Shown here: piece after piece, positions 10,902-47,329 of the stretch
Layout of the letters: the number at the start of each line of letters is the position of its first letter
Position numbering within the stretch: the stretch's first letter is position 1
Origin: Pecten maximus
Lineage: Eukaryota
Assembly: GCF_902652985.1 (NCBI RefSeq)
Contig: NC_047019.1
Coordinates: 38,688,001-38,752,000, forward strand
DNA length: 64,000 bases
Direction: 5' to 3'
Made by a program: the position numbers and the translations under genes
The notes under the pieces: model-generated
Database searches by the model: none
What the model was told of the DNA's origin: nothing
Seen by the model: only the letters and a program-made list of their open reading frames with translations

Positions 10902-11432
10902 ATTGTGCTCTGAAACTCGACCTCGTATTCATCATAGACGGTACCAGTGCTGTTCCCCCTCATGACTTCTCTAAACTCAAACAAGCGGTACTTGCGCTCC
11001 TCAGGTGCATGCATGAGCGGGACCAGGTACACGCCGGAGTTATTGTGTACGGATCTACACTGGCTCGCCCCATACCCCTCTCTGGCGACAGGAACAAGCT
11101 CGTGGAGTTGGAGGGGGTCAATCCACCGATGGGACAACCTGAAACACATATCGCACTGTTAAACGGAAGAGCCCTGTTTCGGAAACGAGGCAGGCCACAA
11201 GTGAAGAAAGTTGCAGTTTTCTTAACTAGTGGGTTAGGAAAGTTTGCACAGGAGACAATTCAACAGGCAGAACATGCACGTAAAGAGGGATATAGACTGA
11301 TTGTGGTCACCTTGGCGAGTGAAGTAGAGGGCGCTGACCAGTTACCATGGCGACCCGGAGATATCTTTAAACTGAAAAATGTCAACGAAATGGTGGAAGA
11401 ACTTGGAAAAATAGCCAGGAAAATATGTTCTG
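10902..11432 (+). CDS. Pif-like exon: von Willebrand factor A domain
   Basis: Acceptor ttttttttcAG|, donor G|GTAGGC, phase 1-1. Peptide CALKLDLVFIIDGTSAV…AGVIVYGS…THIAL…KKVAVFLTSG…LIVV…KIC has the VWA strand/helix pattern with flanking cysteines. Confidence 0.92.
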
Positions 11433-11826: not shown

Positions 11827-11964
11827 TTGCCCATGCGGATGTTGTCAAGCCCCTAGTAAACCAAAACAGAACATCCTCGTTTACAAGGCAACCAAGCAAT
11901 GGTCACGAAGCCCTTGGGGATATTGCTGAGGCTCTCAGAGGGAAGACGGATGGCGACGCTTCAG
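11827..11964 (+). CDS. Pif-like exon: linker (VAHADVVKPLVNQNRTSS…ALRGKTDGDAS)
   Basis: gttgcAG| acceptor, CAG|GTTGGT donor, 138 nt, phase 1-1, open in frame, more GC-rich than its flanks. No recognisable domain. Confidence 0.62.
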
Positions 11965-16711: not shown

Positions 16712-16906
16712 ATATGTGTTCACAAAGTATCCTGATAGAAGGGGTTGGATACGCCCGTCATCCCAAGGAGTGTGACAAGTTAGTCCAATGTTTCCTAAAG
16801 GAAAGTGGAGCGTGGTACTACGTAGTCCAATCCTGTGGAGTGGGGGAATTCTGGGACCAGGAACTACTGGCATGCCGATTAGCTGAAGTTGTCGACTGCC
16901 CTAACG
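16712..16906 (+). CDS. Pif-like exon: chitin-binding type-2 (CBM14) domain, 6 Cys
   Basis: ttcctttcAG| acceptor, G|GTATGT donor. Peptide DMCSQS…GVGYARHPKECDKLVQC…SCGVGEFWDQELLACR…DCPN follows the CBM14 HPxxC..(F/L)xQC…CxxGxxW/FD…C pattern. Confidence 0.92.
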
Positions 16907-19204: not shown

Positions 19205-20770
19205 GCATATTACCATGAGTTTGGTACATTTCAGCATGAGTTTGGTACATTTCAGCATGAGTTTGGTACATATTACCATGCGTTTGGTACATATTACCAT
19301 GAGTTTGGTACATATCACCATGAGTTTGGTACATATCACCATAAGTGTGGTACATATCACCATGAGATTGGTTCATATCACCATGAGATTGGTTCATATC
19401 ACCATGAGATTGGTTCATATCACCACGAGATTGGTTCATATCACCATGAGATTGGTTCATATCACCACGAGATTGGTTCATATCACCATGAGATTGGTTC
19501 ATATCACCATGAGATTGGTTCATATCACCATGAGATTGGTTCATATCACCATGAGATTGGTTCATATCACCATGAGATTAGTTCATATCACCATGAGATT
19601 GGTTCATATCACCATGAGATTGGTTCATATCACCATGAGATTGGTTCATATCACCATGAGATTGGTTCATATCACCATGAGATTGGTTCATATCACCATG
19701 AGATTGGTTCATATCACCATGAGATTGGTTCATATCACCATGAGATTGGTTCATATCACCATGAGTTTGGTACATTTCAGCATGAGTTTGGTACATTTCA
19801 CCATGAGTTTGGTACATTTCACCATGAGTTTGGTGCATATTACCATGCGTTTGGTACATATTACCATGAGTTTGGTACATATCACCATGAGTTTGGTACA
19901 TATCACTATGAGTTTGGTACATATTACCATGAGTTTGGTACATATCACCATAAGTTTGGTACATATCACCATGAGTTTGGTACATATCACCATGAGTTTG
20001 GTACATTTCAGCATGGGTTTGGTACATTTCAGCATGAGTTTGGTACATATTACCATGAGTTTGGTACATATTACCATGAGTTTGGTACATATCACCATGA
20101 GTTTGGTACATATCACCATAAGTTTGGTACATATCACCATGAGTTTGGTACATATCACCATGAGTTTGGTACATTTCAGCATGAGTTTGGTACATATTAC
20201 CATGAGTTTGGTACATATCACCATAAGTTTGGTACATATCACCATGAGTTTGGTACATATTACCATGAGTTTGATACATATCACCATGAGTTTGGTACAT
20301 ATCACCATGAGTTTGGTACATATCACCATGAGTTTGGTACATATTACCATGAGTTTGATACATATCACCATGAGTTTGGTACATATTACCATGAGTTTGG
20401 TACATATCACCATAAGTTTGGTACATATCACCATGAGTTTGGTACATATCACCATGAGTTTGGTACATTTCAGCATGAGTTTGGTACATATCACCACGAG
20501 TTTGGTTTATATCACCACGAGATTGGTACATTTCAGCATGAGTTTGGTACATATCACCATGAGTTTGGTACATATCACCATGAGTTTGGTACATATCACC
20601 ATGAGTTTGGTACATATTACCATGAGTTTGGTACATATCACCACGAGTTTGGTTCATATCACCACGAGATTGGTACATTTCAGCATGAGTTTGGTACATA
20701 TCACCACGAGTTTGGTACATATTACAATAAGTTTGGTTCATATCACCATGAGTTTGGTACACATCACAGG
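19205..20770. repeat. 21-bp minisatellite, about 74 copies
   Basis: Unit catgagtttggtacatatcac, with a homogeneous block of the variant catgagattggttcatatcac at about 19360-19760. Confidence 0.97.
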
Positions 20771-21659: not shown

Positions 21660-21848
21660 ACAGGTGTAAGGATCCGTCTGTGACGTCAGTGCCCCACTCT
21701 GACAACTGTAAAGCATATTACCACTGCGAGAAGGGTCATTCCGTGGGTCAGTGCTGTCCGGGTGGATCAACGTTCGATTCAGAACGAGGCTGTGTAAACC
21801 ATACCGCATGTCCTCAGGAATGTGTGCCGGAAACGAGTCCAAAACCAG
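21660..21848 (+). CDS. Pif-like exon: second chitin-binding-like domain (8 Cys)
   Basis: catttcAG| acceptor, CAG|GTATAT donor. Peptide DRCKDPSV…NCKAYYHCEKGHSVGQCCPGGSTFDSERGCV…CPQEC. Confidence 0.9.
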
Positions 21849-23235: not shown

Positions 23236-23689
23236 TGAACAACAGCATGAGTCATTTCATGTATACATGTATTTAGTTTTATATCACCAAATAAAAACAC
23301 CTAAAACGTTGTACAACTGGTGCCGCTCGGATTAGAAATTACATTCGGTATTTGTGTGTACGTTATTATAGAGAAGAGCTAACCTGGCGGCGATTAAAGA
23401 TAGTTTAAGAATCCCTAACTACACATTTCGAAAATGGGTTGACTTTATGTATTATAAAGTGCCGAACTGTAATTTGGAATGAACATTCTGTGTCTAACTT
23501 GGGTCCTATCAAATAACATGACCTAGATAAAACAAGTGTTTAAACATTGGAATGAAAGATTTTTGGGGTGAGATTTTAACAAGCAAGTCTTGTACATCTG
23601 ATATCATCTCTAATGCAACTGATACCAAATGCCCCTTGTCTTGTGTATCTGATGTCATATGTCCCATATGAGCTATTATCATGTACCTG

Positions 23690-25552
23690 ATGTCATATGA
23701 ACTATTATCCTGTAGCTGATACCATATCAACTAATTCCCCTGTACCTGATGTCATATGAACTATTCCCCTGTACCTGATGCCATATGAACTATTCCCCTG
23801 TACCTGATGCCATATGAACTATCCCCCTGTACCTGATGTCATATGAACTATTCCCCTGTACCTGATGTCATATGAACTATTCCCCTGTACCTGATGCCAT
23901 ATGAACTATTCCCCTGTACCTGATGCCATATGAACTATTCCCCTGTACCTGATGCCATATGAAGTATTCCCCTGTACCTGATGTGGTATGAACTATTCCC
24001 CTGTACCTGATGCCATATGAACTATTCCCTTGTACCTGATGCCATATGAACTATTCACCTGTACCTGATGCCATATGAACTATTCCCCTGTACCTGCTGC
24101 CATATGAACTATTCCCCTGTACCTGCTGCCATATGAACTATTCCCCTGTACCTGATGTCATATGAACTATTCCCCTGTACCTGATGCCATATGAACTATT
24201 CCCCTGTACCTGATGCCATATGAACTATTCCCCTGTACCTGATGTCATATGAACTATTCCCCTGTACCTGCTGCCATATGAACTATTCCCCTGTACCTGC
24301 TGCCATATGAACTATTCCCCTGTACCTGATGTCATATGAACTATTCCCCTGTACCTGCTGCCATATGAACTATTCCCCTGTACCTGCTGCCATATGAACT
24401 ATTCCCCTGTACCTGATGCCATATGAACTATTCCCCTGTACCTGATGCCATATGAACTATCCCCCTGTACCTGATGTCATATGAACTATTCCCCTGTACC
24501 TGATGTCATATGAACTATTCCCCTGTACCTGATGCCATATGAACTATTCCCCTGTACCTGATGCCATATGAACTATTCCCCTGTACCTGATGCCATATGA
24601 AGTATTCCCCTGTACCTGATGTGGTATGAACTATTCCCCTGTACCTGATGCCATATGAACTATTCCCTTGTACCTGATGCCATATGAACTATTCACCTGT
24701 ACCTGATGCCATATGAACTATTCCCCTGTACCTGCTGCCATATGAACTATTCCCCTGTACCTGCTGCCATATGAACTATTCCCCTGTACCTGATGTCATA
24801 TGAACTATTCCCCTGTACCTGCTGCCATATGAACTATTCCCCTGTACCTGCTGCCATATGAACTATTCCCCTGTACCTGATGTCATATGAACTATTCCCC
24901 TGTACCTGCTGCCATATGAACTATTCCCCTGTACCTGCTGCCATATGAACTATTCCCCTGTACCTGATGTCATATGAACTATTCCCCTGTACCTGCTGCC
25001 ATATGAACTATTCCCCTGTACCTGCTGCCATATGAACTATTCCCCTGTACCTGATGTCATATGAACTATTCCCCTGTACCTGCTGCCATATGAACTATTC
25101 CCCTGTACCTGATGTCATATGAACTATTCCTCTGTACCTGATGTCATATGAACTATTCCCCTGTACCTGATGCCATATGAACTATTCCCCTGTACCTGCT
25201 GCCATATGAACTATTCCCCTGTACCTGCTGCCATATGAACTATTCCCCTGTACCTGATGTCATATGAACTATTCCCCTGTACCTGCTGCCATATGAACTA
25301 TTCCCCTGTACCTGCTGCCATATGAACTATTCCCCTGTACCTGATGTCATATGAACTATTCCCCTGTACCTGCTGCCATATGAACTATTCCCCTGTACCT
25401 GCTGCCATATGAACTATTCCCCTGTACCTGATGTCATATGAACTATTCCCCTGTACCTGCTGCCATATGAACTATTCCCCTGTACCTGCTGCCATATGAA
25501 CTATTCCCCTGTACCTGATGTCATATGAACTATTCCTCTGTACCTGATGTCA
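23690..25552. repeat. 29-bp minisatellite, about 64 copies
   Basis: Unit tgaactattcccctgtacctgatgccata. Confidence 0.97.
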
Positions 25553-26329
25553 TTGCCTAGTTATCATACACCTTATGTCACAAAGCCTTTAGCACCTGAT
25601 GCCGTAAGCCTTGTGCAGCCGATTTCATACATGTCTTCTATTCTCGTGCACCTGAATTATATTAAGTGGACGCTTTAGCCAGTGGTATTGATATATTCAC
25701 GCTCGACAAGTCCCATGAGGATTGGTGTAAGATAATTACATGTACCTGTGGTGTTTTGGACAAGTATATCAACATACACACATAGAAACGTTACAAGGTG
25801 ACGGAAAGGACAACCGCAGCTAGCTTTGGCGAATGTCTTTTGCAGCCCATGACGCCAGATAAAGCAAATGATAACGTTTTCTTCGTTTAAAAGAATCTGA
25901 GAGAAAATCAATATAAGTGTACAAAATGGAACAAAAGTAAGATATAGAACTATTTCCAAACAGAACATTGGGGACTATAGGTGGTACCAAATTCAAACGG
26001 CACTGTGCAGTAAGAATGAAAACCTCGGCATACATTTTCGAAATTTAAATTGATTTACATGAAATTCAATGCTACAATCAATACCTTGTATATATTAGCT
26101 ACATGTATCAGATGCTCTAGAAACCCGAAATTAATACAGGAGCATTCAGTGAGATCAGGTTCTTAGAGATTTTTAATATTTTACATGGTTTGTTTAATCC
26201 CTGAGAATAACGTGTCCTCATTATCTAACGTTAGATCGTACGCACAACACATCACGTGATCTCTTACCCATCTCTTCTTAATACAAATACAGAACGTGTA
26301 ATACCGATAACAGACGTACGACCAACACC

Positions 26330-29300
26330 AATCTCCAGGCTGATACCAAGATTTTATCTCCAGACTCATAACGAGATTTTATCTCCAGACTGATACCGAG
26401 ATTTTATCTCCAGACTGATACCGAGATTTTATCTCCAGACTGATAACGAGATTTTATCTCCAGACTGATACCGAGATTTTATCTCCAGACTGATACCGAG
26501 ATTTTATCTCCAGGCTGATACCGAGATTTTATCTCCAGACTGATACCAAGATTTTATCTCCAGACTGATAACGAGATTTTATCTCCAGACTGATACCGAG
26601 ATTTTATCTCCAGACTGATACCGAGATTTTATCTCCAGGCTGATACCGAGATTTTATCTCCAGACTGATAACGAGATTTTATCTCCAGACTGATACCGAG
26701 ATTTTATCTCCAGACTGATACCAAGATTTTATCTCCAGACTGATACCGATATTTTATCTCCAGACTGATACCAAGATTTTATCTCCAGACTGATACCGAG
26801 GTTTTATCTCCAGACTGATACCGAGGTTTTATCTCCAGTCTGATACCGAGATTTTATCTCCAGAAATACCGAGATTTTATCTCCAGGCTCATACCGAGAT
26901 TTTATCTCCAGACTGATACCGAGATTGTATCTCCAGGCTGATACCGAGAGTTGATCTCCGGACTGATACCGAGATTTTATCTCCAGACTGATACCGAGAT
27001 TTTATCTCCAGACTGATACCGAGATTTTATCTCCAGACTGATACCGAGATTTTATCTCCAGGCTCATACCGAAATTTTATCTCCAGACTGATCCGAGATT
27101 TTATCTCCAGACTGATACCAAGATTTTATCTCCAGACTGATACCGAGATTTTATCTTCAGGCTGATAACGAGATTTTATCTCCAGGTTGATACCGAGATT
27201 TTATCTCCAGACTGATACCGAGATTTTATCTCCAGACTGATACCGAGATTTTATCTCCAGGCTGATACCGATGTTTTATCTCCAGACTGATACCGAGATT
27301 TTATCTCCAGACTGATACCGAGATTGTATCTCCAGACTGATACCGGGATTTTATCTCCAGACTGATACCGAGATTTTATCTCCAGGCTGATACCGAGATT
27401 TTATCTCAAGACTGATACCGAGATTTTATCTCCAGACTGATACCGAGATTTTATCTCCAGGCTGATACCGAGATTTTATCTCCAGGCTGATACCGAGATT
27501 TTATCTCCAGACTGATACCGAGATTTTATCTCCAGACTGATACCGAGATTTTATCTCCAGGCTGATACCGAGATTTTATCTCCAGACTGATACCGAGATT
27601 TTATCTCCAGGCTCATACCGAAATTTTATCTCCAGACTGATACCGAGGTTTTATCTCCAGGCTGATACCGAGATTTTATCTCCAGGCTGATACCGAGGTT
27701 TTATCTCCAGGCTCATACCGAGATTTTATCTCCAGGCTGATACCGAGATTTTATCTTCAGACTGATACCGAGATTTTATCTCCAGGCTGATACCGAGATT
27801 TTATCTCTAGGCTGATACCGAGATTTTATCTCCAGACTGATACCGAGATTTTATCTCCAGGCTCATACCGAGATTTTATCTCCAGACTGATACCGAGATT
27901 TGATCTCCAGACTGATACCGAGATTTTATCTCCAGACTGATACCGAGATTTTATCTCCAGACTGATACCGAGATTTTATCTCCAGACTGATACCGAGATT
28001 TTATCTCCAGACTGATACCGAGATTTTATCTCCAGGCTCATACCGAGATTTTATCTCCAGACTGATACCGAGATTTTATCTCCAGGCTGATACCGAGATT
28101 TTATCTCCAGACTGATACCGAGATTTTATCTCCAGACTGATACCGAGATTTTATCTCCAGACTGATACCGAGATTTTATCTCCAGGCTGATACCGAGATT
28201 TTATCTCCAGACTGATAACGAGATTTTATCTCCAGACTGATACCGAGATTTTATCTCCAGACTGATACCAAGATTTTATCTCCAGACTGATACCGATATT
28301 TTATCTCCAGACTGATACCAAGATTTTATCTCCAGACTGATACCGAGGTTTTATCTCCAGACTGATACCGAGGTTTTATCTCCAGTCTGACACCGAGATT
28401 TTATCTCCAGAAATACCGAGATTTTATCTCCAGGCTCATACCGAGATTTTATCTCCAGACTGATACCGAGATTGTATCTCCAGGCTGATACCGAGAGTTG
28501 ATCTCCGGACTGATACCGAGATTTTATCTCCAGACTGATACCGAGATTTTATCTCCAGACTGATACCAAGATTTTATCTCCAGACTGATACCGAGATTTT
28601 ATCTCCAGGCTCATACCGAAATTTTATCTCCAGACTGATCCGAGATTTTATCTCCAGACTGATACCAAGATTTTATCTCCAGACTGATACCGAGATTTTA
28701 TCTTCAGGCTGATAACGAGATTTTATCTCCAGGTTGATACCGAGATTTTATCTCCAGACTGATACCGAGATTTTATCTCCAGACTGATACCGAGATTTTA
28801 TCTCCAGGCTGATACCGATGTTTTATCTCCAGACTGATACCGAGATTTTATCTCCAGACTGATACCGAGATTGTATCTCCAGACTGATACCGGGATTTTA
28901 TTTCCAGACTGATACCGAGATTTTATCTCCAGGCTGATACCGAGATTTTATCTCAAGACTGATACCGAGATTTTATCTCCAGACTGATACCGAGATTTTA
29001 TCTCCAGGCTGATACCGAGATTTTATCTCCAGGCTGATACCGAGATTTTATCTCCAGACTGATACCGAGATTTTATCTCCAGACTGATACCGAGATTTTA
29101 TCTCCAGGCTGATACCGAGATTTTATCTCCAGACTGATACCGAGATTTTATCTCCAGGCTCATACCGAAATTTTATCTCCAGACTGATACCGAGGTTTTA
29201 TCTCCAGGCTGATACCGAGATTTTATCTCCAGACTGATACCGAGATTTTATCTCCAGGCTGATACCGATGTTTTATCTCCAGACTGATACCGAGATTTTA

Positions 29301-29953
29301 TCTCCAGACTGATACCGAGATTGTATCTCCAGACTGATACCGGGATTTTATCTCCAGACTGATACCGAGATTTTATCTCCAGGCTGATACCGAGATTTTA
29401 TCTCAAGACTGATACCGAGATTTTATCTCCAGACTGATACCGAGATTTTATCTCCAGGCTGATACCGAGATTTTATCTCCAGGCTGATACCGAGATTTTA
29501 TCTCCAGGCTGATACCGAGATTTTATCTCCAGGCTGATACCGAGATTTTATCTCCAGGCTGATACCGAGATTTTATCTCCAGACTGATACCGAGATTTTA
29601 TCTCCAGGCTCATACCGAAATTTTATCTCCAGACTGATACCGAGGTTTTATCTCCAGGCTGATACCGAGATTTTATCTCCAGGCTGATACCGAGATTTTA
29701 TCTCCAGGCTCATACCGAGATTTTATCTCCAGACTCATACCGAGATTTTATCTCCAGGCTGATACCGAGATTTTATCTCCAGGCTGATACTGAGGTTTTA
29801 TCTCCAGGCTCATACCGAGATTTTATCTCCAGACTGATACCGAGATTTTATCTCCAGGCTGATACCGAGATTTTATCTCCAGACTGATACCGAGATTTTA
29901 TCTCCAGACTGATACCGAGATTTTATCTCCAGACTGATACCGAGATTTTATCT
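26330..29953. repeat. 25-bp minisatellite, about 145 copies
   Basis: Unit ccgagattttatctccagactgata. Confidence 0.97.
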
Positions 29954-30949: not shown

Positions 30950-33801
30950 GTTATCACATGTAAATAAAGGGGGTCAGTAAGTATAGACGGCAGTATCACA
31001 TGTAAATAAAGGGGGTCAGTAAATATAGACGACAGTATCACATGTAAATAAAGGGGGTCAGTAAATATAGACGGCAGTATCACGTGTAGATAAAGGGGGT
31101 CAGTAAATATAGACGACAGTATCACATGTAATAAAGGGGGTTAGTAAATATAGACGGCAGTATCACATGTAATAAAGGGGGTTAGTAAATATAGACGGCA
31201 GTATCACATGTAAATAAAGGGGGTCAGTAAATATAGACGGCAGTATCACATGTAAATAAAGGGGGTCAGTAAATATAGACGGCAGTATCACATGTAAATA
31301 AAGGGGGTCAGTAAATATAGACGGCAGTATCACATGTAAATAAAGGGGGTCAGTAAATATAGACGGCAGTATCACATGTAAATAAAGGGGGTCAGTAAAT
31401 ATAGACGGCAGTATCACATGTAAATAAAGGGGGTCAGTAAATATAGACGGCAGTATCACATGTAAATAAAGGGGGTCAGTAAATATAGACGACAGTATCA
31501 CATGTAATAAAGGGGGTCAGTAAATATAGACGGCAGTATAACATGTAAATAAAGGGGGTCAGTAAATATAGACGGCAGTATCACATGTAAATAAAGGGGG
31601 TCAGTAAATATAGACGGCAGTATCACATGTAAATAAAGGGGGTCAGTAAATATAGACGGCAGTATCACATGTAAATAAAGGGGGTCAGTAAATATAGACG
31701 GCAGTATCACATGTAAATAAAGGGGGTCAGTAAATATAGACGGCAGTATCACGTGTAAATAAAGGGGGTCAGTAAATATAGACGGCAGTATCACATGTAA
31801 ATAAAGGGGGTCAGTAAATATAGACGGCAGTATCACATGTAAATAAAGGGGGTCAGTAAATATAGACGGCAGTATCACATGTAAATAAAGGGGGTCAGTA
31901 AATATAGACGGCAGTATCACATGTAAATAAAGGGGGTCAGTAAATATAGACGGCAGTATCACATGTAAATAAAGGGGGTCAGTAAATATAGACGGCAGTA
32001 TCACATGTAAATAAAGGGGGTCAGTAAATATAGACGGCAGTATCACGTGTAAATAAAGGGGGTTAGTAAATATAGACGGCAGTATCACATGTAAATAAAG
32101 GGGGTCAGTAAATATAGACGGCAGTATCACGTGTAAATAAAGGGGGTCAGTAAATATAGACGGCAGTATAACGTGTAGATAAAGGGGGTCAGTAAATATA
32201 GACGGCAGTATCACATGTAAATAAAGGGGGTCAGTAAATATAGACGGCAGTATCACATGTAAATAAAGGGGGTCAGTAAATATAGACGGCAGTATCACAT
32301 GTAAATAAAGGGGGTCAGTAAATATAGACGGCAGTATCACGTGTAAATAAAGGGGGTCAGTAAATATAGACGGCAGTATAACGTGTAGATAAAGGGGGTC
32401 AGTAAATATAGACGGCAGTATCACATGTAAATAAAGGGGGTCAGTAAATATAGACGGCAGTATCACATGTAAATAAAGGGGGTCAGTAAATATAGACGGC
32501 AGTATCACGTGTAGATAAAGGGGGTCAGTAAATATAGACGGCAGTATCACATGTTAATAAAGGGGGTCAGTAAATATAGACGGCAGTATCACATGTAAAT
32601 AAAGGGGGTCAGTAAATATAGACGGCAGTATCACGTGTAAATAAAGGGGGTCAGTAAATATAGACGGCAGTATCACGTGTAAATAAAGGGGGTCAGTAAA
32701 TATAGACGGCAGTATCACATGTAAATAAAGGGGGTCAGTAAATATAGACGGCAGTATCACATGTAAATAAAGGGGGTCAGTAAGTATAGACGGCAGTATC
32801 ACATGTAAATAAAGGGGGTCAGTAAATATAGACGGCAGTATCACATGTAAATAAAGGTGGTCAGTAAATATAGACGGCAGTATCACCTGTAAATAAAGGG
32901 GGTCAGTAAATATAGACGGCAGTATCACCTGTAAATAAAGGGGGTCAGTAAATATAGACGGCAGTATCACGTGTAAATAAAGGGGGTCAGTAAATATAGA
33001 CGGCAGTATCACGTGTAAATAAAGGGGGTCAGTAAATATAGACGGCAGTATCACATGTAAATAAAGGGGGTCAGTAAATATAGACGGCAGTATCACATGT
33101 AAATAAAGGGGGTCAGTAAATATAGACGGCAGTATCACATGTAAATAAAGGGGGTCAGTAAATATAGACGGCAGTATCACGTGTAAATAAAGGGGGTTAG
33201 TAAATATAGACGGCAGTATCACATGTAAATAAAGGGGGTCAGTAAATATAGACGGCAGTATCACGTGTAAATAAAGGGGGTCAGTAAATATAGACGGCAG
33301 TATCACGTGTAAATAAAGGGGGTCAGTAAATATAGACGGCAGTATCACGTGTAGATAAAGGGGGTCAGTAAATATAGACGACAGTATCACATGTAAATAA
33401 AGGGGGTCAGTAAATATAGACGGCAGTATCACATGTAAATAAAGGGGGTCAGTAAATATAGACGGCAGTATCACATGTAAATAAAGAGGGTCAGTAAATA
33501 TAGACGGCAGTATCACATGTAAATAAAGGTGGTCAGTAAATATAGACGGCAGTATCACATGTAAATAAAGGTGGTCAGTAAATATAGACGGCAGTATCAC
33601 GTGTAAATAAAGGGGGTCAGTAAATATAGACGGCAGTATCACATGTTAATAAAGGTGGTCAGTAAATATAGACGGCAGTATCACATGTAAATAAAGGGGG
33701 TCAGTAAATATAGACGGCAGTATCACATGTAAATAAAGGGGGTCAGTAAATATAGACGGCAGTATCACATGTAAATAAAGGGGGTCAGTAAATATAGACG
33801 G
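30950..33801. repeat. 42-bp minisatellite, about 68 copies
   Basis: Unit gtatcacatgtaaataaagggggtcagtaaatatagacggca. Confidence 0.97.
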
Positions 33802-33874
33802 CTGAGATTCATTACACAAAAGAGATGTTATTAAGTGTTAAATAACGAGGTCTGTGATTAAAGACGGCTGAGAT

Positions 33875-36372
33875 CGCCACAAATGTCTTTAAATCAGTTG
33901 TTTGACTATTTCAAAAATCTTGCTAACAGTGCAGAAATAACAGACTCTACGCATATACATGAGAATGAGCCTGAAGTTGACGAGGCGGTCATGTTTGAAG
34001 AGCTAAGTCATGACATATTGGTATGAATGAAATAAACGATGCTATTAATAATCTCAAACGAGGTAAATCACATGGTTTAGATGGTTTGTTAAATGAATGT
34101 TTTATGGAAGGTAAATTTATTCTTTCACCAATTTTTCACACATTATTTAATAATATCTTAAGGTCTCGATGTTTCCCGTCTGAGTGGTCTATAGCAGTCG
34201 TGGTGCCTGTACATAAGAAAGGCGATCGTACAGATCCTAATAATTACCGTGGTATCAGTCTAATTAGCTGTTTATGTAAATTATTTACATCGATTCTTAA
34301 CAAGAGACTATTAGATGTTTGCATCAAGTACAACATTTTAACGGACGCTCAATTTGGATTCAGACCTAATGTTAGTACAATTGACGCAATTTTCGCTCTA
34401 CAAACATTAATTTCGAAAACTTTAGGTACGAAAAAACGCCTTTACTGCTGCTTTGTTGACTTTCGCAAAGTTTTTGATTACGTGGATAGAGCAGGTTTAT
34501 GGTTTAAGCTGTCCAAGATCGGTGTTAGACGAAATTTTTTAGCAACGGTAAAATCTCTTTATACTTCTGTAAAAGCTTGTGTTTTAGGGAATGGGAAATG
34601 TTCAAACTTTTCCCCAAATAATGTTGGTTTATTACAAGGAGAAATATTGTCTCCCCTACCGTTTTCTCTGTTTATAAATGATTTTGAAAATAGTTTCATT
34701 GAAAACGGTGCCACTAGTTATGATTTTGGAGAGTTGAGTTTATTTCTATTACTATATACAGATGATTTAGTTTTGTTTTCTGAATCAATTGAGGGTTTGC
34801 AAAGTCTTTTGAACAGTTTAAATACAATTCAAATGGATGGAAATTGACTGTTAATATAGAAAAAACAAAGATAGTTGTTTTTCGAAACGGAGGTACTTAT
34901 GTCGGCAGCATTGTTTTTTATGCCTGCGAAATTTGGGGAAGCCTTAAAGCAGTAGAAATAGAAAAAATCCATCTGGAATTTTGTAAACATCTACTTGGGG
35001 TTAAGAAATCTACTTGTAACGCGATGGTATACATTGAACTTGGTCGTCAACCTCTCTTAAATACCCAACTTTTTAGAATGATTAAATATTGGTTTAAATT
35101 ATTAAAATCCGATAATTGTATCCTAAATGAGGCGTATGATTTCCTTTACAGTGAAACTTTAAAGGATCATCCAAAGCATAAATGGCTAGTTTATCTAAAA
35201 CAGAAGTTATTTGAGCTTGGCTTTGGATATGTCTGGATTCGTCAGTCTCATATGGATGTCGATCTTTTACCTTTAATTAAACAGAGGATTATGGATCAGG
35301 CTAATCAATCCTTGTTCAATTCAATTAATATGTCAAACAAATGCGATCTTTATAAGCACATGGTTGACAATGTAACGTATTTAACTAAATCTCTTCCAAA
35401 ACAGCGAAGAATTATGATAACCAAATTACGACTCACATCACACAATCTAGCAATCGAATCCGGAAGATACAGAAATATTGATAGACGTTTTAGATATTGT
35501 TTAAACTGTAATGTTTTAGATGTTGAAGATGAATATCATTTTCTTCTTGTATGCCAGTGATACGGTGATATCAGGAAAAATATATCAAAAAGTATTTCTG
35601 GGATAAACCTTCAGTTTTGAAGGTTATTAAATTATTAAAATCAAACAATCTAAAGGAGTTAAACTTGTTAGGTAAATTTATTATTGAAGCTTTCAAGCGT
35701 AGAATTGTTTATTTCACATAGACACGGATCTCTGACCGATCAGTAATATTTAGCGCCCCATTTAGAATATATTCTTAGAGGAATTGCTCCATAAAAGCAT
35801 GGTTAACATAAAAGTGAAATCCAATCCCTATATTTACACTTACGGATGTTGTTTCTATAAGTCTTTGTGATTACAATATTTTTTCTTTATAAATAAAAAA
35901 AAATCATATAAAAGTCGGACACAGTGGGAGGAGTCAATTATTCGAACAGCCAATGGTGATGCTTCACAACAAATTGAGACTTTTTTTCCGCGGTAAAAAA
36001 TAGTTCTGTTTTTTATTATGATATTAACATAAATAACAAAAACATTTTGATAGATTATCATATTTAATATTGTCAAACATGTTATTTTTATACATTTAAC
36101 AATGGTAAACAAAGCGTGTTGTTTTATTTTAAGAAACATTTTATCACCCGTTTACCGAGAGTAACAGAAAACAGACCGCGACCGAAGCACTCGAAGTTCA
36201 AAGGTCAATGTTTCCATGCAAGAATGGTAAACAAATCGGTCTGGTATTGTTATATAGTGACAAAACTTTGCAAGTGTAAATATATTAGTATAGTTACTGC
36301 ATGCCATATTTTGTATTATCTACTGATAGGCTGTATGGCCTAAAGTTAATAAAAAATTGAAATTGAAAAAAT
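33875..36372 (+). mobile_element. 5'-truncated, decayed non-LTR retrotransposon (RTE-X-like LINE)
   Basis: RT motifs (KKGDRTDPNNYRGISL, QFGFRP, FVDFRKVFDYV, GLLQGEILSPL, LYTDD) and a C-terminal LRLTSHNLAIESGRY…CLNC…EDEYHFLLVC. Frameshift near 34845, internal deletion after VFRNGG, premature stop at 35560. 3' AATAAA plus (ttgaaa)n tail. Flanked by TGAGAT (33869-33874 and 36373-36378). Confidence 0.9.
34023..35560 (+). pseudogene. Reverse transcriptase / C-terminal domain remnant of the LINE
   Basis: Two overlapping ORFs (34023-34847, 34844-35560) in different frames, with YTDD in place of YADD. Confidence 0.88.
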
Positions 36373-38003: not shown

Positions 38004-38183
38004 GTTTTTGTGACAGAGCGGCTGTGTTTGCCAGACCGGAAGTGTATAGTCAATACATCAGCACCGGATCGTACTGGGTAGAGATGCCCTGTGCAAACGG
38101 AAGTTGGTACAACGACCGGAAATGCAGATGTACCGAGGAGATAGTGAAACCTTGGGGCACTGATTCCAACAGCAGGACTTCAA
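38004..38183 (+). CDS. Pif-like exon: third, reduced (4-Cys) chitin-binding-like module
   Basis: ttacAG| acceptor, A|GTAAGG donor. Peptide GFCDRAAV…YSQY…WVEMPCANGSWYNDRKCRC matches the MPCAxGxxY…CxC module that precedes LamG in Pif-family proteins. Confidence 0.88.
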
Positions 38184-39774
38184 GTAAGGACATACAAATG
38201 TCTAGTTATGTGAGATAATTCTACAAGTACGCACTAATTATCCTTACTTAACACTGAAACCCCATCATCTCCGTTTTATTGAGATTGAATCTTTTTGTTT
38301 GGCTTCTGTTTAATTCCGAGCAAATGTCAATATGAAGTGTTAAACCCTAGTTATCGTTAACAAATATCCAAGATTCATTAGACATACCTTAATCAGGTTT
38401 AAACCAGAAGCTGCTTGTAGAATTTTGATTTAATTGAATTTACACGAAGTTTTCGCTCGACATCAGATAGCAGAAGCTTCAGTGAAGGAATAGCCTTCAA
38501 TTTTTAATTTCGTCATTTATTGTCAAATACAGAAAGGCCTTATTGATTTCCGCTGTATTCCGCCGTCTTCTCGGGTTATAAATTCGATTTTCCGTAGAAA
38601 ATGTCTAATTGTAACGGTGCATCATCGACAATACTAATGGCAAAATCGAATATGTTTTACTTAAAAGAGAATCAGAATTTGTATTAGACCTATAAAGTAC
38701 ACAGTGATTTTAAAATAATGTGAACACTTTTAACGAAACCAAATTGCTCGAACGACAATTGGACTTGTAAATACTTGCCGTGGTAGGTTTTTGTGTGCAA
38801 ATAACTCCTTTGTAATGTAAGCATGCTTCCGTCAACAATTGAAAATCGGAAGCTGAGGAATTAAATCCACGGGTTACATACGATAAAAGCAGTACTCGTG
38901 GTTTTTAGTAGTTTTGTTTATACAATCCCAGGACGTTAACACGCGTAACTAACCCTAGTAAATTGCCAGAATCGTGGAACCCTCGCTAAGAGGGATTCGG
39001 TAGTATGCAAACACAATGAGATAGCTTCAGAATTAACTTGATTTGAGGAATCGTATATCTATTTAATTCCGTGTTATGTGCTCTTATGTAAAGACCGATG
39101 TTCTCCGTAACGAGGGCCTCCCGATTATACCTAGTAACATTCTTTGTCCTGTAACTAACATCAGGAGCATAACTGGGATGCCGATATTAAGGTATTTTTA
39201 CAATATATATCAATTATCTTAGCGTGTTTTACAGCTAGAATAGAGATAGTTTCGCAATAAAATGGTTTTCCTCTTTTAGAGTCGTTCCTCGAAATTATAC
39301 ACGGGCGTGCTTTAAATTTGATGTAATAGACATGTCATTGTATGTACCATCGGTTCTCTGCAATGGGAGAAGATACATATTCATCACCCCGCCTTATTGA
39401 AATATATACGTAATACACAATAGTGTTTTAGACTTATACGAATGCGATATATAGCAATTATATTAAAAGTATGATTGAAATTTTGTTCAGTGAGACAATA
39501 ATATCGTTGATACGAAAGCCTATTGGGCTCAGGTTCGAAGAGCCAAGTTATTTTTTGTTGAAATGTGATAAAAACTGTTTCTTGCATACTTCAGCATACA
39601 TATACTTCAAAGTTCAGTGGAGCACATAAACACACCTACCATGCATAGCAATATACCAAAGGTTCTATTCACGTGGCATCTGTAGACAGCCAGGTAATGT
39701 ATCTTATAAAACAGTCTGGTACCAATACTTATAGAGACATAGACTGGGTATTTGGCATACGTGTTCCTTTTGCT

Positions 39775-40125
39775 AGGACCTTTCTATTGGTTCTACATTT
39801 ACGAATCTGCTGACCTTGATCGTGACCTACTTTTAAAAATTAATTCTGAATTTCAACCGACTCGGCGAGCTATCATTCTATCTCCGGCGTCGGTGTCGTG
39901 TGTAGACAGCTAGGTTGAAGTTTTCATAAAACAGTGTTATGTCAATACTAATGAGGATACAGCTTAGGTATATAATATGTGTTTTCTTTCCTTGTCAAAA
40001 GACCTTTCCGTTGGTACTACGTTTGCGGACCTGCTGACCTTTAACCTACTTTTCAAAAGTTGTTTTTGAATTTCAGCCAATTAGAAGCTTTCAGAAGACA
40101 ACTTAGTCTTCTGACAACTCCTGTT
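39775..40125 (+). mobile_element. Helitron/Helentron-type (HINE-like) remnant
   Basis: Two related tgacctt…acctactttt units (39777-39858, 40001-40078) and a terminal hairpin CAGAAGAC-aactta-GTCTTCTG followed by …ctcctgtt. Confidence 0.45.
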
Positions 40126-40619
40126 ATGTAGTATAATACGGGTTAGTTTCGTGTCCTCACGTTTTGTTTGATGTTTCGCGTCATTACTCGAAAGCTTATA
40201 GTGTTCCTAAAATGAACCCAGGTTTCCGTACAATGTCGTGTCGCATCTGGAGAAATTACGCCGAACATGCTATTGGAAAGAGGTTAACATTGAATAGAAA
40301 AACAAAACACAAAACCAATGAGTTATTTATTAAGGGATGTTCGAAATAGACAAAATATGTAATATTTTTGGACCTGAAGAGATGTGTATAGTTATATGAA
40401 CCTGAGAAAGAGACAATAACCAAACATAGGGTACACATACATGTGATTTATTATGACTTTTCAGATACACGTAACCAGATATTTACCCAAGTAAATGATT
40501 TCCAGAACAATCCAGGCCATCTAATTGAGTTACGATGATTTCGTATTACTTGATGTAAAACATAAAGAAATAAAATAAAAACTGATCGAGTTTCGGTCAT
40601 AGTCCTAGACATAATTTAG

Positions 40620-41590
40620 GATAAATAGTTAGTATTATATTACATTAGGAATGATAGAAGTATGATATAAATAGTTAGTATTATATTACATTAGGAATGA
40701 TAGAAGTATGATATAAATAGTTAGTATTATATTACATTAGGAATGGTAGAAGTATGATATAAATAGTTAGTAGTATATTACATTAGGAATGGTAGAAGTA
40801 TGATATAAACAGTTAGTAGTATATTACATTAGGAATGGTAGAAGTATGATATAAATAGTTAGTATTATATTACATTAGGAATGGTAGAAGAATGATATAA
40901 ACAGTTAGTAGTATATTACATTAGGAATGGTAGAAGTATGATATAAACAGTTAGTAGTATATTACATTAGGAATGATAGAAGTATGATATAAATAGTTAG
41001 TATTATATTACATTAGGAATGGTAGAAGTATGATATAAATAGTTAGTAGTATATTACATTAGGAATGGTAGAAGTATGATATAAACAGTTAGTAGTATAT
41101 TACATTAGGAATGGTAGAAGTATGATATAAATAGTTAGTTGTATATTACATTAGGAATGGTAGAAGTATGATATAAACAGTTAGTAGTATATTACATTAG
41201 GAATGGTAGAAGTATGATATAAATAGTTAGTAGTATATTACATTAGGAATGGTAGAAGTATGATATAAATAGTTAGTAGTATATTACATTAGGAATGGTA
41301 GAAGTATGATATAAATAGTTAGTAGTATATTACATTAGGAATGGTAGAAGTATGATATAAATAGTTAGTATTATATTACATTAGGAATGGTAGAAGTATG
41401 ATATAAATAGTTAGTATTATATTACATTAGGAATGGTAGAAGTATGATATAAATAGTTAGTAGTATATTACATTAGGAATGGTAGAAGTATGATATAAAT
41501 AGTTAGTATTATATTACATTAGGAATGGTAGAAGTATGATATAAATAGTTAGTAGTATATTACATTAGGAATGGTAGAAGTATGATATAT
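40620..41590. repeat. 46-bp minisatellite, about 21 copies
   Basis: Unit ataaatagttagtagtatattacattaggaatggtagaagtatgat. Confidence 0.96.
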
Positions 41591-41711
41591 ACATTGTAAC
41601 TATTGGAACTGTGTTATAAACCATATTTAATAGATTGCGATTTGATATGTATAAACTATATTGCTAACATGATGTTTTAACCTAACCTATTTACGCCGAC
41701 ATCCATTGTAG

Positions 41712-41904
41712 TGTGTAAACCCGAAGTCTACCTACCTTTCTGTGGCGGACTAACGGATCACTCTGGACATGGCAACGTCATCGAGAACGAGGGTGACCGC
41801 GTCTTTGTGATTGACGGGAAGGCTTACTTTAATGGCCACTCAACTCTCTACCTTCCAAGTTTTTCGAACGCTCACTACGGCGATTCGGTCGTCATTAAGC
41901 TCAA
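41712..41904 (+). CDS. Pif-like exon: LamG/ConA-like domain, N-terminal part
   Basis: ttgtAG| acceptor, AA|GTGAGT donor (phase 2). Peptide CKPEVYLPF…DHSGHGN…ENEG…GKAYFNG…LPSFSNAHYGDSVVIKLK. Confidence 0.92.
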
Positions 41905-43231: not shown

Positions 43232-43649
43232 GTATAAGATGGCAAAACGTAAACTAGATCATGGTGACTCCGATGAATACAGCGACTTTGACTATTACAA
43301 CCCGGATGATGACAGCTACGATTTTAACGATGAATATGATGAAGACGAGGACAACAGATTATACAATACGATGGCACTTGTCTCCAATGGCGACTGTGAT
43401 AACGATTACACCTGGTCCGGATCATGTTACGAGAACCCAACCATCACCATAGCGACGAACAGACGGACAACCATCTTTAACGTTTACACGTCCGAGGATG
43501 AACAGGAAACACAGATGGAGGTACACAAGAAACTACGTAAAAAAGAACACGATGAATTGGATGTGGATTATTATGACGATGAATACTACTCGTATCTGTT
43601 CGAGAATGGGTTTCATGACGATTCCAGCAACTGTACAAATGACACATGG
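43232..43649 (+). CDS. Pif-like exon: LamG middle part with two Asp/Tyr-rich inserts
   Basis: tcttcAG|G acceptor in phase 2 completes K-Y. Contains the LamG-family motif ALVSNGDC and TITIAT…FNVYT. Donor TGG|GTACGT, phase 0. An in-frame alternative donor GAG|GTACAC lies after 43520. Confidence 0.85.
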
Positions 43650-44369
43650 GTACGTACATCTTTTCAGTACATGGAACATAATCCATAATTCGTAACAGGA
43701 TTTTCAAACAGACTCGCACATCTTTGGGAACAATTGGGTCACTATCTAGTCGACATGTTTTTGTTTTTGCTAGGCAGTCGTAATACAAAAAAAACTCAAT
43801 ACTGGTAATAAAGACCTTGCTATTTCTGTCAATTAACTTATAAACATATCGATAATGGTATATGTCTTTAGCTGTTGATACATAGCGATAGGATAAACCG
43901 GCCCTTTTAGTCAAGTTGTAAGTAAATGCCAGGGTAAACGGTCGCTATATTGAAGAGTCGGTTATGCCTTTGATACTTATAAGTTACGGAAATGGCATTT
44001 GTTTCCTTTTTAAACCTTTCTAAAAGCTTCCTAAATTATATTGCTGAAATGGCATTTGTTTACTTTTTAACCTTTTCTAAAAGCTTCCTAAATTATATTG
44101 CCGTTTTATAATCTTTTGAAAATGTGAAAAAATGCCTGTCTGGCAAATCCAAGTCCTGAATAGGTAATATAACTATATCCCTGGCAATGTTCATCTATTA
44201 CTCCTCTATATTGTATAAAACAAGTGCCGGTTTTTAGCGACCAATAACAATGTATTTTTATATGTAGTGTTCATTCTTTATTGATATATGTTTTCGTTCA
44301 TGAAATTTCACTTTTTTTATTGAAACTTAGTGCTAACGTTATAATGAGCTTTAGTTGACTTCACCACAG

Positions 44370-44460
44370 GATGACGAATGGCGTACTGTGATGTTCCTGG
44401 TCCACAACAATTCATTCAGTGTTTACGACAACAGTCTTCATGACCAAAGTAGAGTTTCTG
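44370..44460 (+). CDS. Pif-like exon: LamG strands (DDEWRTVMFLVHNNSFSVYDNSLHDQSRVS); not in the ORF track
   Basis: caccacAG| acceptor, TG|GTAATT donor. The 91 nt bridge phase 0 to phase 1, exactly as the neighbouring exons require. W-x-x-V strand typical of LamG. Confidence 0.85.
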
Positions 44461-45889: not shown

Positions 45890-47329
45890 ATCTACGTGTA
45901 CCTCTGTAGACCAAACGACAGCGACCTGTTTGATGAAGCCGACACCACCGGATCTGATTCTACGGTAACCGAGGTTAACATGGACGAAACCACCAGATAC
46001 ACACCTTCCGATGTCACGAAACATCTTTCCTCTCCATCAACTTCAATCGGAACGACGCAAGCTGAGACGTCTGGTGACGTCTTGGACTACAGCAGCGAAA
46101 GTTCATTGATGACGGAATCCACGGTGACGGAGTACGATGAAGTCTATCTTACACGTATCATTACGGAAGCGTTGGACTCGGAGTTTTCAACAACCATGGG
46201 AACAATTGATTTATCGGAAGTGACGTCACTCAGTGAGAGTACAACATCAGTTAGAGAATCATTTACAGCAGAATCTTTAACAACTGTATCTGATTCGGAA
46301 ACAACTTTAAAAAATAGTTCATCATCTTTTAACTCTACATCATCATCATCATCACCCATCGAGAGTACTTCATTACCTGTTACAGAATCATCATCACCCA
46401 TCGAGAGTACTCCATTACCTGTTACAGAATCATCATCACCCATCGAGAGTACTCCATTACCTGTTACAGAATCATCATCACTCATCGAGAGAACATCATC
46501 ACATGTTACAGAAACATCATCAAATCCATTAAGTACTTCTTCATCAGTTTTCTTTGATTCATCACAACCGGTGATAGAAGATACAGAAAAAATCACCGAA
46601 ACATCATCAATTTCTTCACCTACTAACTCTTCACATTCAAATTATCAAACGACTTTTGAACCAGGTGTAAAAGAATACATCACCGAAAGTGAACTTCCGC
46701 AAACAGACATTTACTTCAAAAATCGCTACAACGTCACTTCCGTTTCTGGTATTTTGGAAGAAAGTGATTCATATAATACCTCGAGCCAACATAACAGAAC
46801 TACGCCCCTAGGTGGTGATGTTGACAGTTTGATCATACCTACTTCCAGTCTACGTGGTATCGTTCTTAACAATAACTCATTTTTATCATTACTTACAGGT
46901 AAAAATACATATTTAAAGTCAACAACAGCTGTTGCAAGTATACAACTTGGAAATGATACTCTACGGCTACATAATAATAGTGAAAATAATGGAAATTGTT
47001 GTATCGATTCTCAAATACATGGTGCTACAAAGGGGCACAATCACACTGCTCAAAGTATTCTCAAGACAAATGGTGCTATTATCCACAACGAAAATGGTGA
47101 ATATATCGATAAAGAAAGACGAAGAGCCAAAAACAATAGTCTTACAACAGCTATACAATCTACAGACGACACCACCGCCGGGGCTGCTACATCCCAAGGG
47201 TCCTACGTTACACAATCAGTTAATTTTTCAAAGTGGCTATTTGCCAAATTTGATAGTGATTATCACAGCGAGAATAGACGATCCCATGATAGTGAAGCTA
47301 ACGTGACTGGATGGCGACCAGAACATTGA
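45890..47329 (+). CDS. Pif-like terminal exon: end of LamG (IYVYLC) plus a Ser/Thr-rich low-complexity tail of about 470 aa
   Basis: gttctacAG|ATC TAC GTG TAC CTC TGT; 1440-nt open frame to TGA. Rich in S/T/E/D, with 14-aa repeats SSSPIESTPLPVTE and many N-x-S/T sequons. Confidence 0.87.
   Translation: MYVYLCRPNDSDLFDEADTTGSDSTVTEVNMDETTRYTPSDVTKHLSSPSTSIGTTQAETSGDVLDYSSESSLMTESTVTEYDEVYLTRIITEALDSEFSTTMGTIDLSEVTSLSESTTSVRESFTAESLTTVSDSETTLKNSSSSFNSTSSSSSPIESTSLPVTESSSPIESTPLPVTESSSPIESTPLPVTESSSLIERTSSHVTETSSNPLSTSSSVFFDSSQPVIEDTEKITETSSISSPTNSSHSNYQTTFEPGVKEYITESELPQTDIYFKNRYNVTSVSGILEESDSYNTSSQHNRTTPLGGDVDSLIIPTSSLRGIVLNNNSFLSLLTGKNTYLKSTTAVASIQLGNDTLRLHNNSENNGNCCIDSQIHGATKGHNHTAQSILKTNGAIIHNENGEYIDKERRRAKNNSLTTAIQSTDDTTAGAATSQGSYVTQSVNFSKWLFAKFDSDYHSENRRSHDSEANVTGWRPEH

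Follow-up and report, generated by a model that had tools for sequence, protein, structure and literature searches.

Pif is a central nacre protein, and its acidic part changes sharply between species. The available text of Shimizu et al. 2024 describes 'LG domain insert sequences' of 138-1,438 aa between 'partial' halves of the laminin-G (LG) domain and treats the span as one insert. In the Pif subfamily these inserts are Asp-dominant and are linked to calcium binding, with Suzuki 2013 cited, i.e., Asp-rich LG inserts in Pif are already published (PMC11291548). The main text of that paper contains none of the words scallop, tyrosine and loop. The VWA domain is there used as a character for subfamilies, and the P. 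fucata VWA gathers partners in pull-downs (PMC11291548). According to the available portions of other papers, Pif80 binds aragonite and makes Ca2+ coacervates (PMC11291548, PMC5540247), and native Pif80 carries no phosphorylation or glycosylation, its fold being judged not critical (PMC5540247). Likewise in the available text, Du 2016 obtained aragonite-binding peptides that depend on basic residues from the Pif80 tail (residues 913-934), past the LG domain (PMC4971512), Yoshida et al. 2022 modelled P. fucata Pif with AlphaFold and describe a LamG3-like C-terminus in argonaut Pif (PMC9635652), and Bai 2023 reports that high mantle expression is lacking for many Pif/LamG3 genes (PMC10543319). 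The available part of PMC13190495 contains nothing on LG loops.

The window studied here, a stretch of 64,000 nucleotides from the scallop Pecten maximus, contains a gene that we rebuilt from GT-AG exons at 10902-47329 (+). Its product consists of a VWA domain, two Pfam CBM_14 domains, a third chitin-binding-like module, an LG domain and a 471-aa Ser/Thr-rich tail, and is identical to NCBI 'protein PIF-like [Pecten maximus]' except for the N-terminus. From its sequence, the gene is best read as the scallop orthologue of Pif, within the Pif subfamily of shell matrix proteins. The features are as follows.

10902-11432, + strand: VWA exon (Pfam VWA, E=2.7e-13; GT-AG ends; in the NCBI protein)
11827-11964, + strand: 138-bp linker exon in the interval between VWA and chitin-binding modules (in the NCBI protein; AG/GT ends; similar stretch in Mizuhopecten X1)
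16712-16906, + strand: exon of CBM_14 domain 1 (Pfam CBM_14, E=9.3e-7)
21660-21848, + strand: exon of CBM_14 domain 2 (Pfam CBM_14, E=3.1e-6)
38004-38183, + strand: exon of the third chitin-binding-like module (no Pfam match; tblastn similarity to paralogue modules; joint 38183-41712 in run X13)
41712-41904, + strand: exon with the N-terminal LG strands, CKPEV...IKLK (GT-AG ends; contig joints)
43232-43649, + strand: 418-bp exon with loop 1, the middle LG strands and most of loop 2 (X1/X11 contig joints at both ends)
43239-43370, + strand: acidic Asp/Tyr loop 1, site 1, where pearl-oyster Pif has its RMKR cut site (translation, alignment, AlphaFold)
43371-43523, + strand: conserved middle LG strands, MALVSNGDC...QMEV (94% identity to Mizuhopecten)
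43398-43436, + strand: small Pif-clade insertion with an extra Cys (alignment; a rewired disulfide is likely)
43524-44378, + strand: acidic Asp/Tyr loop 2, coding 43524-43649 and 44370-44378 (translation, alignment, AlphaFold)
44370-44460, + strand: exon with the LG strands from WRTV (GT-AG ends; contig joints)
45062-45141, + strand: exon with the C-terminal LG strands, GLQFG...FKGYMDE (GT-AG ends; contig joints)
45890-47329, + strand: last coding exon with the final LG strand and the 471-aa tail, 34% S+T with 14 N-x-S/T sequons (GT-AG ends; contig joints)

RNA-like contigs from runs X1 and X11, apparently one data set, link the 418-bp exon to 41904 upstream and to 44370 downstream, and all four LG-region introns are spliced out in them. 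Run X13 adds the joint 38183-41712 and coverage of 43377-43578, and run X3 covers 43366-43548. As none of the runs is recorded as RNA, the evidence for transcription is these spliced joints, from runs of unstated tissue with a contig depth of only about 8-12. Both segments that the first-pass annotation had described as inserts within the LG domain are transcribed and spliced in. As the exon length is not a multiple of three and the exon contains core strands, its loss by skipping would cause a frameshift and disrupt the LG domain; a misread intron or a skippable exon is thus ruled out by the splice joints together with the exon phase. In the tail exon (46063-47321) the X1 contigs differ from the genome at 18 positions and by a 6-bp deletion, while the LG domain shows 0 differences over 419 bases of the listed spliced contig. 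A length variant of a 42-bp repeat is hinted at in run X13.

A search of the 10 kb preceding the window and of the part of the window ahead of 10902 revealed no signal-peptide exon. A signal peptide is visible by eye only in the N-terminus of a Mizuhopecten isoform, from which the Pecten protein would also be expected to be secreted. In RefSeq, the N-terminus of the Pecten protein is the translation of a short tandem repeat that lies about 6.3-6.4 kb before the start of the window, probably through an error in the gene model.

A library search returned 88 relatives. Both LG halves are present in 64 of 90 proteins, and removing five fragmentary or internally deleted rows left 59. Among these, 52 have only 9-14 aa at site 1 and 5-12 aa at site 2, compared with 46 and 45 aa in Pecten, so the two segments are true insertions as first proposed; that they are conserved core of the homologues is ruled out by the same compact loops. 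The residue counts given earlier are exact for insert 1 (43239-43370; 44 aa with 13 D, 4 E and 6 Y) and insert 2 (43524-43649; 42 aa with 8 D, 4 E and 5 Y). Loop 2 was correctly located but cut too short, as three more residues (DDE) follow in the next exon, up to 44378. The pair of insertions is also incomplete, with a third at 43398-43436 that has 13 aa against a median of 3 and carries an extra Cys.

Relative to the composition of the whole protein, insert 1 is enriched in D+E (P=1e-4) and Y (P=0.008), and insert 2 in D+E (P=0.017) and Y (P=0.025), these values being uncorrected and for segments picked post hoc. In both scallops, P. maximus and Mizuhopecten yessoensis, the loops measure 46-48 aa (site 1) and 43-45 aa (site 2), contain 29-37% D+E and have a net charge of -10 to -12; the two Pecten loops together carry about -22. 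Of the initial description, 'basic cluster + Asp/Tyr-rich', the second half therefore stands, while the basic clusters are weakly conserved (MAKRKL in Pecten is MANRTP in Mizuhopecten). As a functional motif they are a weak candidate, with only 4 of 9 K/R kept between the scallops.

The Pecten LG domain was modelled with AlphaFold, using 42 of the 64 LG domains as alignment (pTM 0.77). The core is confident (pLDDT about 95, blocks 90-97) and the loops are not (about 48), in agreement with the initial proposal of loops on an intact LamG/ConA sandwich. The domain is predicted to be a jelly-roll beta-sandwich with disordered loops. The best fold match is 5hon (Z 17.9, rmsd 2.8 over 174 residues), with other ConA/LamG folds scoring equally well, and neurexin and laminin LG domains score Z 13-14. 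Neither the insert exon nor the LG domain of the scallop has a useful Pfam match, for the latter probably owing to interruption by the inserts, and a sequence search of the PDB gave a weak ConA-like match alone (E=0.005). Compact LG domains of the LamG3/BMSP type (Laminin_G_3, PF13385) share the sandwich with the scallop domain but are without the long loops (52 of 59); PF13385 is matched by 19 of the 42 aligned LG members. In LG domains, the strand preceding loop 1 pairs with the strand following loop 2. From this topology both loops would share one rim of the sandwich.

We suggest that the two LG loops of scallop Pif serve as flexible polyanionic arms that bind Ca2+ or CaCO3; by homology to Pif80 we consider this probable, with considerable room for doubt. 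The protein would be located in the shell as a single uncleaved chain. Its chitin-binding modules likely anchor it on the organic scaffold, its VWA likely recruits partners as in P. fucata and, with the chitin-binding domains, tethers the protein, and the LG sandwich, in its predicted fold, would hold out the two flexible acidic loops, which could concentrate Ca2+ or adsorb to growing carbonate. Some observations count against parts of this. Aragonite binding by Pif80 peptides was seen with stretches of the tail that need their basic residues, and DDRK is absent from the scallop protein, which speaks against mineral binding by the loops; that many Pif/LamG3 genes are not mantle-enriched speaks against a shell role. 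The shell-proteome tables searched (PMC8382897 and, for PMC5854119, those of Mya) list no peptide of the protein, a result that carries no weight either way.

The domain order, VWA followed by two CBM_14 with the third module recognised by similarity alone, is that of the Pif/BMSP family, and within the LG domain AYFNG...IKLKY and WRTV...FKGYMDEIYVY match segments quoted in PMC11291548. As in the Pif subfamily, Asp-rich low-complexity sequence splits the LG halves, with 33-37% D+E in both loops. Each scallop protein has one VWA, against three or four tandem VWA in the BMSP subfamily, and the R-X-K/R-R cut and DDRK repeats of the Pinctada type are missing. No R-X-K/R-R motif occurs in the LG or tail of either scallop, and DDRK occurs 0 times in both proteins compared with 11 exact copies in P. 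fucata Pif.

Phylogenies of two domains place the scallop gene with Pif. Seven LG domains have long loops (two scallops, two Saccostrea, two Pinctada Pif and one Potamilus), and in a tree of the 59 rows with the loop columns removed all seven lie on one side of a branch (98/99). A profile search added Sinohyriopsis Pif, Sinanodonta and three Mytilus proteins, giving a clade of 12. These 12 group together both in an LG-core tree of 64 rows (SH-aLRT 98) and in a VWA tree of 32 rows, where scallops and P. fucata Pif are included (99/95); the LG and VWA trees are midpoint-rooted without an outside outgroup, and the VWA tree draws only on the VWA domains among 102 proteins, perhaps sampling fewer than the eight subfamilies. 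Site 1 is lengthened in 12 of 12 clade members (25-593 aa) and site 2 is long in 9, being compact in the three Mytilus rows. Homologue and library searches for scallop orthologues gave P. maximus and M. yessoensis alone.

The Pif clade also has its own cysteine pattern, with an extra Cys after NGxC and loss of the C-terminal-side Cys that is found in 41 of 52 compact LG domains. The Cys of YLPFC in exon 41712-41904 is part of this rewired pattern. The scallops have added one Cys in loop 2 (43626-43640) and a CC in the tail (46991-47005); in Pinctada, Saccostrea and Mytilus, a C-D-Y-x-N motif close to the C-terminus takes their place.

P. fucata Pif resembles the scallop protein in having one VWA, three chitin-binding(-like) modules and an LG domain, a 48-aa middle block between two acidic inserts, the extra Cys after NGxC and in YLPFC, and the loss of the compact-type Cys. 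Its LG domain, modelled by AlphaFold from a 30-row alignment, is also an intact sandwich with two loose loops. This bears on the first-pass annotation, which had by implication set the scallop loops apart from Pif80. Its insertions, their splicing and the loops on a sandwich hold, but the contrast with Pif80 has to be given up, since P. fucata Pif itself has acidic inserts at both loops on an intact modelled sandwich and the scallop gene falls in the Pif clade in both trees. A display unlike Pif80 as a unique trait is thus ruled out by Pif's own inserts at both sites. The differences are that the P. fucata loops are longer (about 101 and 115 aa), Asp/Lys/Arg-rich and near neutral, whereas those of the scallop (46 and 45 aa) are Asp/Tyr-rich and net negative; that the tail is D/K/R in P. 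fucata and Ser/Thr-rich in the scallop; and that an RMKR-type cut site and 11 DDRK are present only in P. fucata. The shells differ as well, that of the scallop being foliated calcite with crossed-lamellar aragonite, not nacre, according to the available text of PMC5854119.

Within P. fucata Pif residues 462-853, the Pif97/Pif80 cut is located in loop 1. The RMKR at 544-547 agrees with the 460-residue Pif80 given in the available text of PMC4971512. The P. fucata LG sandwich would then comprise both chains, and its first Cys (Pif97) and last Cys (Pif80) could form an inter-chain disulfide. If true, this would add to the VWA-Pif80 contact reported in the available text of Shimizu 2024 (PMC11291548).

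Among the other members, the unionid Pif proteins (Sinohyriopsis cumingii, Potamilus) are similar to the scallops in loop lengths (48 and about 52-58 aa), net charge (-9 to -14), a basic patch where loop 2 begins and the lack of R-X-K/R-R; however, their loops are Asp/Ser-rich with zero Tyr, and they have no C-terminal tail. Site 2 of Sinanodonta is about 100 aa. Mytilus and Saccostrea Pif-like proteins share the clade and both loop sites with the scallops, but in Mytilus loop 1 has 559-593 aa beginning with RRKR and loop 2 is compact, while in Saccostrea loop 2 has about 540-790 aa beginning with RRKR and site 1 has 25-30 aa.

An R-X-K/R-R motif thus lies near the start of a long loop, namely loop 1 in Pinctada (RMKR or RIKR) and in Mytilus (RRKR) and loop 2 in Saccostrea (RRKR), and the scallop basic clusters occupy the position of these motifs. 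Since loop length and composition also vary widely across the clade, the loops could be tolerant spacers or leftovers of processing, with the basic clusters as (degenerate) convertase sites and acidic residues that have no specific job. We give this little credence, as R-X-K/R-R is absent from the LG and tail of both scallops and as loop 2 is 81% identical with all its Tyr kept, more than the tail. In the polyanionic-arm reading that we prefer, the missing motif instead predicts an uncut chain, as for unionid Pif. Among the sequences compared, short loops with 11 conserved Tyr and with neither R-X-K/R-R nor DDRK appear in this clade in scallops alone.

The idea of LG inserts reportedly originates from Suzuki 2013, where the middle LG block may already be shown. 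What we add to the published picture is modest: the mapping to two sites and a scallop form that is short, Tyr-conserved and apparently uncut. With the change in Pif's acidic part mapped to two fixed loops on a conserved fold, it becomes testable by loop swaps on one scaffold. Scallop Pif provides for this a short, non-nacre comparison, as well as a concrete candidate for Tyr sulfation in a shell protein.

Between P. maximus and M. yessoensis, identity is 59% in loop 1, 81% in loop 2, 91-94% in the core and 51% in the tail; the inserts together are 70% identical, more than the tail (P=0.001). All 11 loop Tyr are kept compared with 6 of 13 tail Tyr (P=0.006), and all 16 loop aromatics (11 Tyr and 5 Phe/Trp) compared with 44 of 70 other loop residues (P=0.002), both tests being on one species pair. 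Such conservation suggests that the loop tyrosines have a functional role. Tyr among acidic residues is the context of TPST substrates. An acidic-context rule for sulfation is passed by 10 of the 11 loop Tyr in both scallops and also by 7 of the 37 other Tyr of the Pecten protein, while the five other clade members scored have 1-3 such Tyr per whole protein. Two TPST-like genes (C8:10203310-10203888 and C11:22617104-22617685) are present in the genome, with E values of 1e-95 and 1e-71 to solved TPSTs; they are expected of an animal and hence only permissive. Together, the conservation and these genes make sulfation plausible, and the scallop loop tyrosines may be sulfated; this is our leading candidate for their role, although we hold it to be less likely than not. 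The charge of both loops would then reach up to about -32 if ten Tyr were modified. A literature search that covered few subscription journals found nothing on topic about Tyr sulfation in shell proteins.

The pattern of conservation resembles a linear motif more than a bulk polyanion, as all 16 aromatics are kept but only 19 of 29 acidic and 4 of 9 basic residues. The stretch DYYDDEYYSYLFEN is identical in both scallops, and AlphaFold places short helices at 101-108 and 181-188 of the LG model. Together with the TPST-like genes, this would fit loops that are sulfotyrosine-type sites for binding a basic partner or for matrix assembly, not mineral arms. Such a role has no known partner, and in unionids, oysters and mussels these loops have few or no Tyr yet are always acidic, so that acidity is the constant of the clade; we therefore consider protein-binding loops unlikely. 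Tyr conservation fits any Tyr chemistry, and the P. maximus shell contains tyrosinases according to the available text of PMC5854119. The tyrosines could thus be substrates of tyrosinase (DOPA) cross-linking or of extracellular phosphorylation instead of sulfation, fixing the protein in an insoluble matrix. This is quite improbable: the acidic surroundings of 10 of the 11 Tyr are those of TPST substrates, native Pif80 showed no phosphorylation in the available text of PMC5540247, and the single S-x-E in the loops is not kept in Mizuhopecten.

Starting from Ca2+/CaCO3-binding acidic arms, it can be speculated further that scallop Pif was remodelled into one uncut chain with up to ten sulfotyrosines on its two LG loops, which would offer foliated calcite a mineral-binding surface based on sulfate. 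In bivalves at large, the Pif LG would be a two-slot display scaffold refilled per lineage (D/K/R, D/S, D/Y or very long spacers), and where it is cut, the split sandwich itself would join Pif97 and Pif80. This combined scenario is rather unlikely, and we put it forward tentatively. If mineral binding and sulfation both fail, an ordinary Pif orthologue remains.

Three other LG loci, paralogues of the gene, are found in Pecten on contig C10. Two convergent chitin-binding + LG genes lie at C10:2674000-2694000 with a VWA exon nearby, and the third locus is at C10:18346000-18356000. The aligned stretches of these three paralogues, in which site 2 is partly read, show no long site-1 loop.

The introns of the scallop gene contain minisatellite arrays with units of 21-46 bp (19206-20767, 23664-25553, 26331-29953, 30952-33802 and 40621-41589), which account for most long ORFs of the window. 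At 34014-35560, also within an intron, two overlapping ORFs resemble, by eye, a degraded LINE-type reverse transcriptase.
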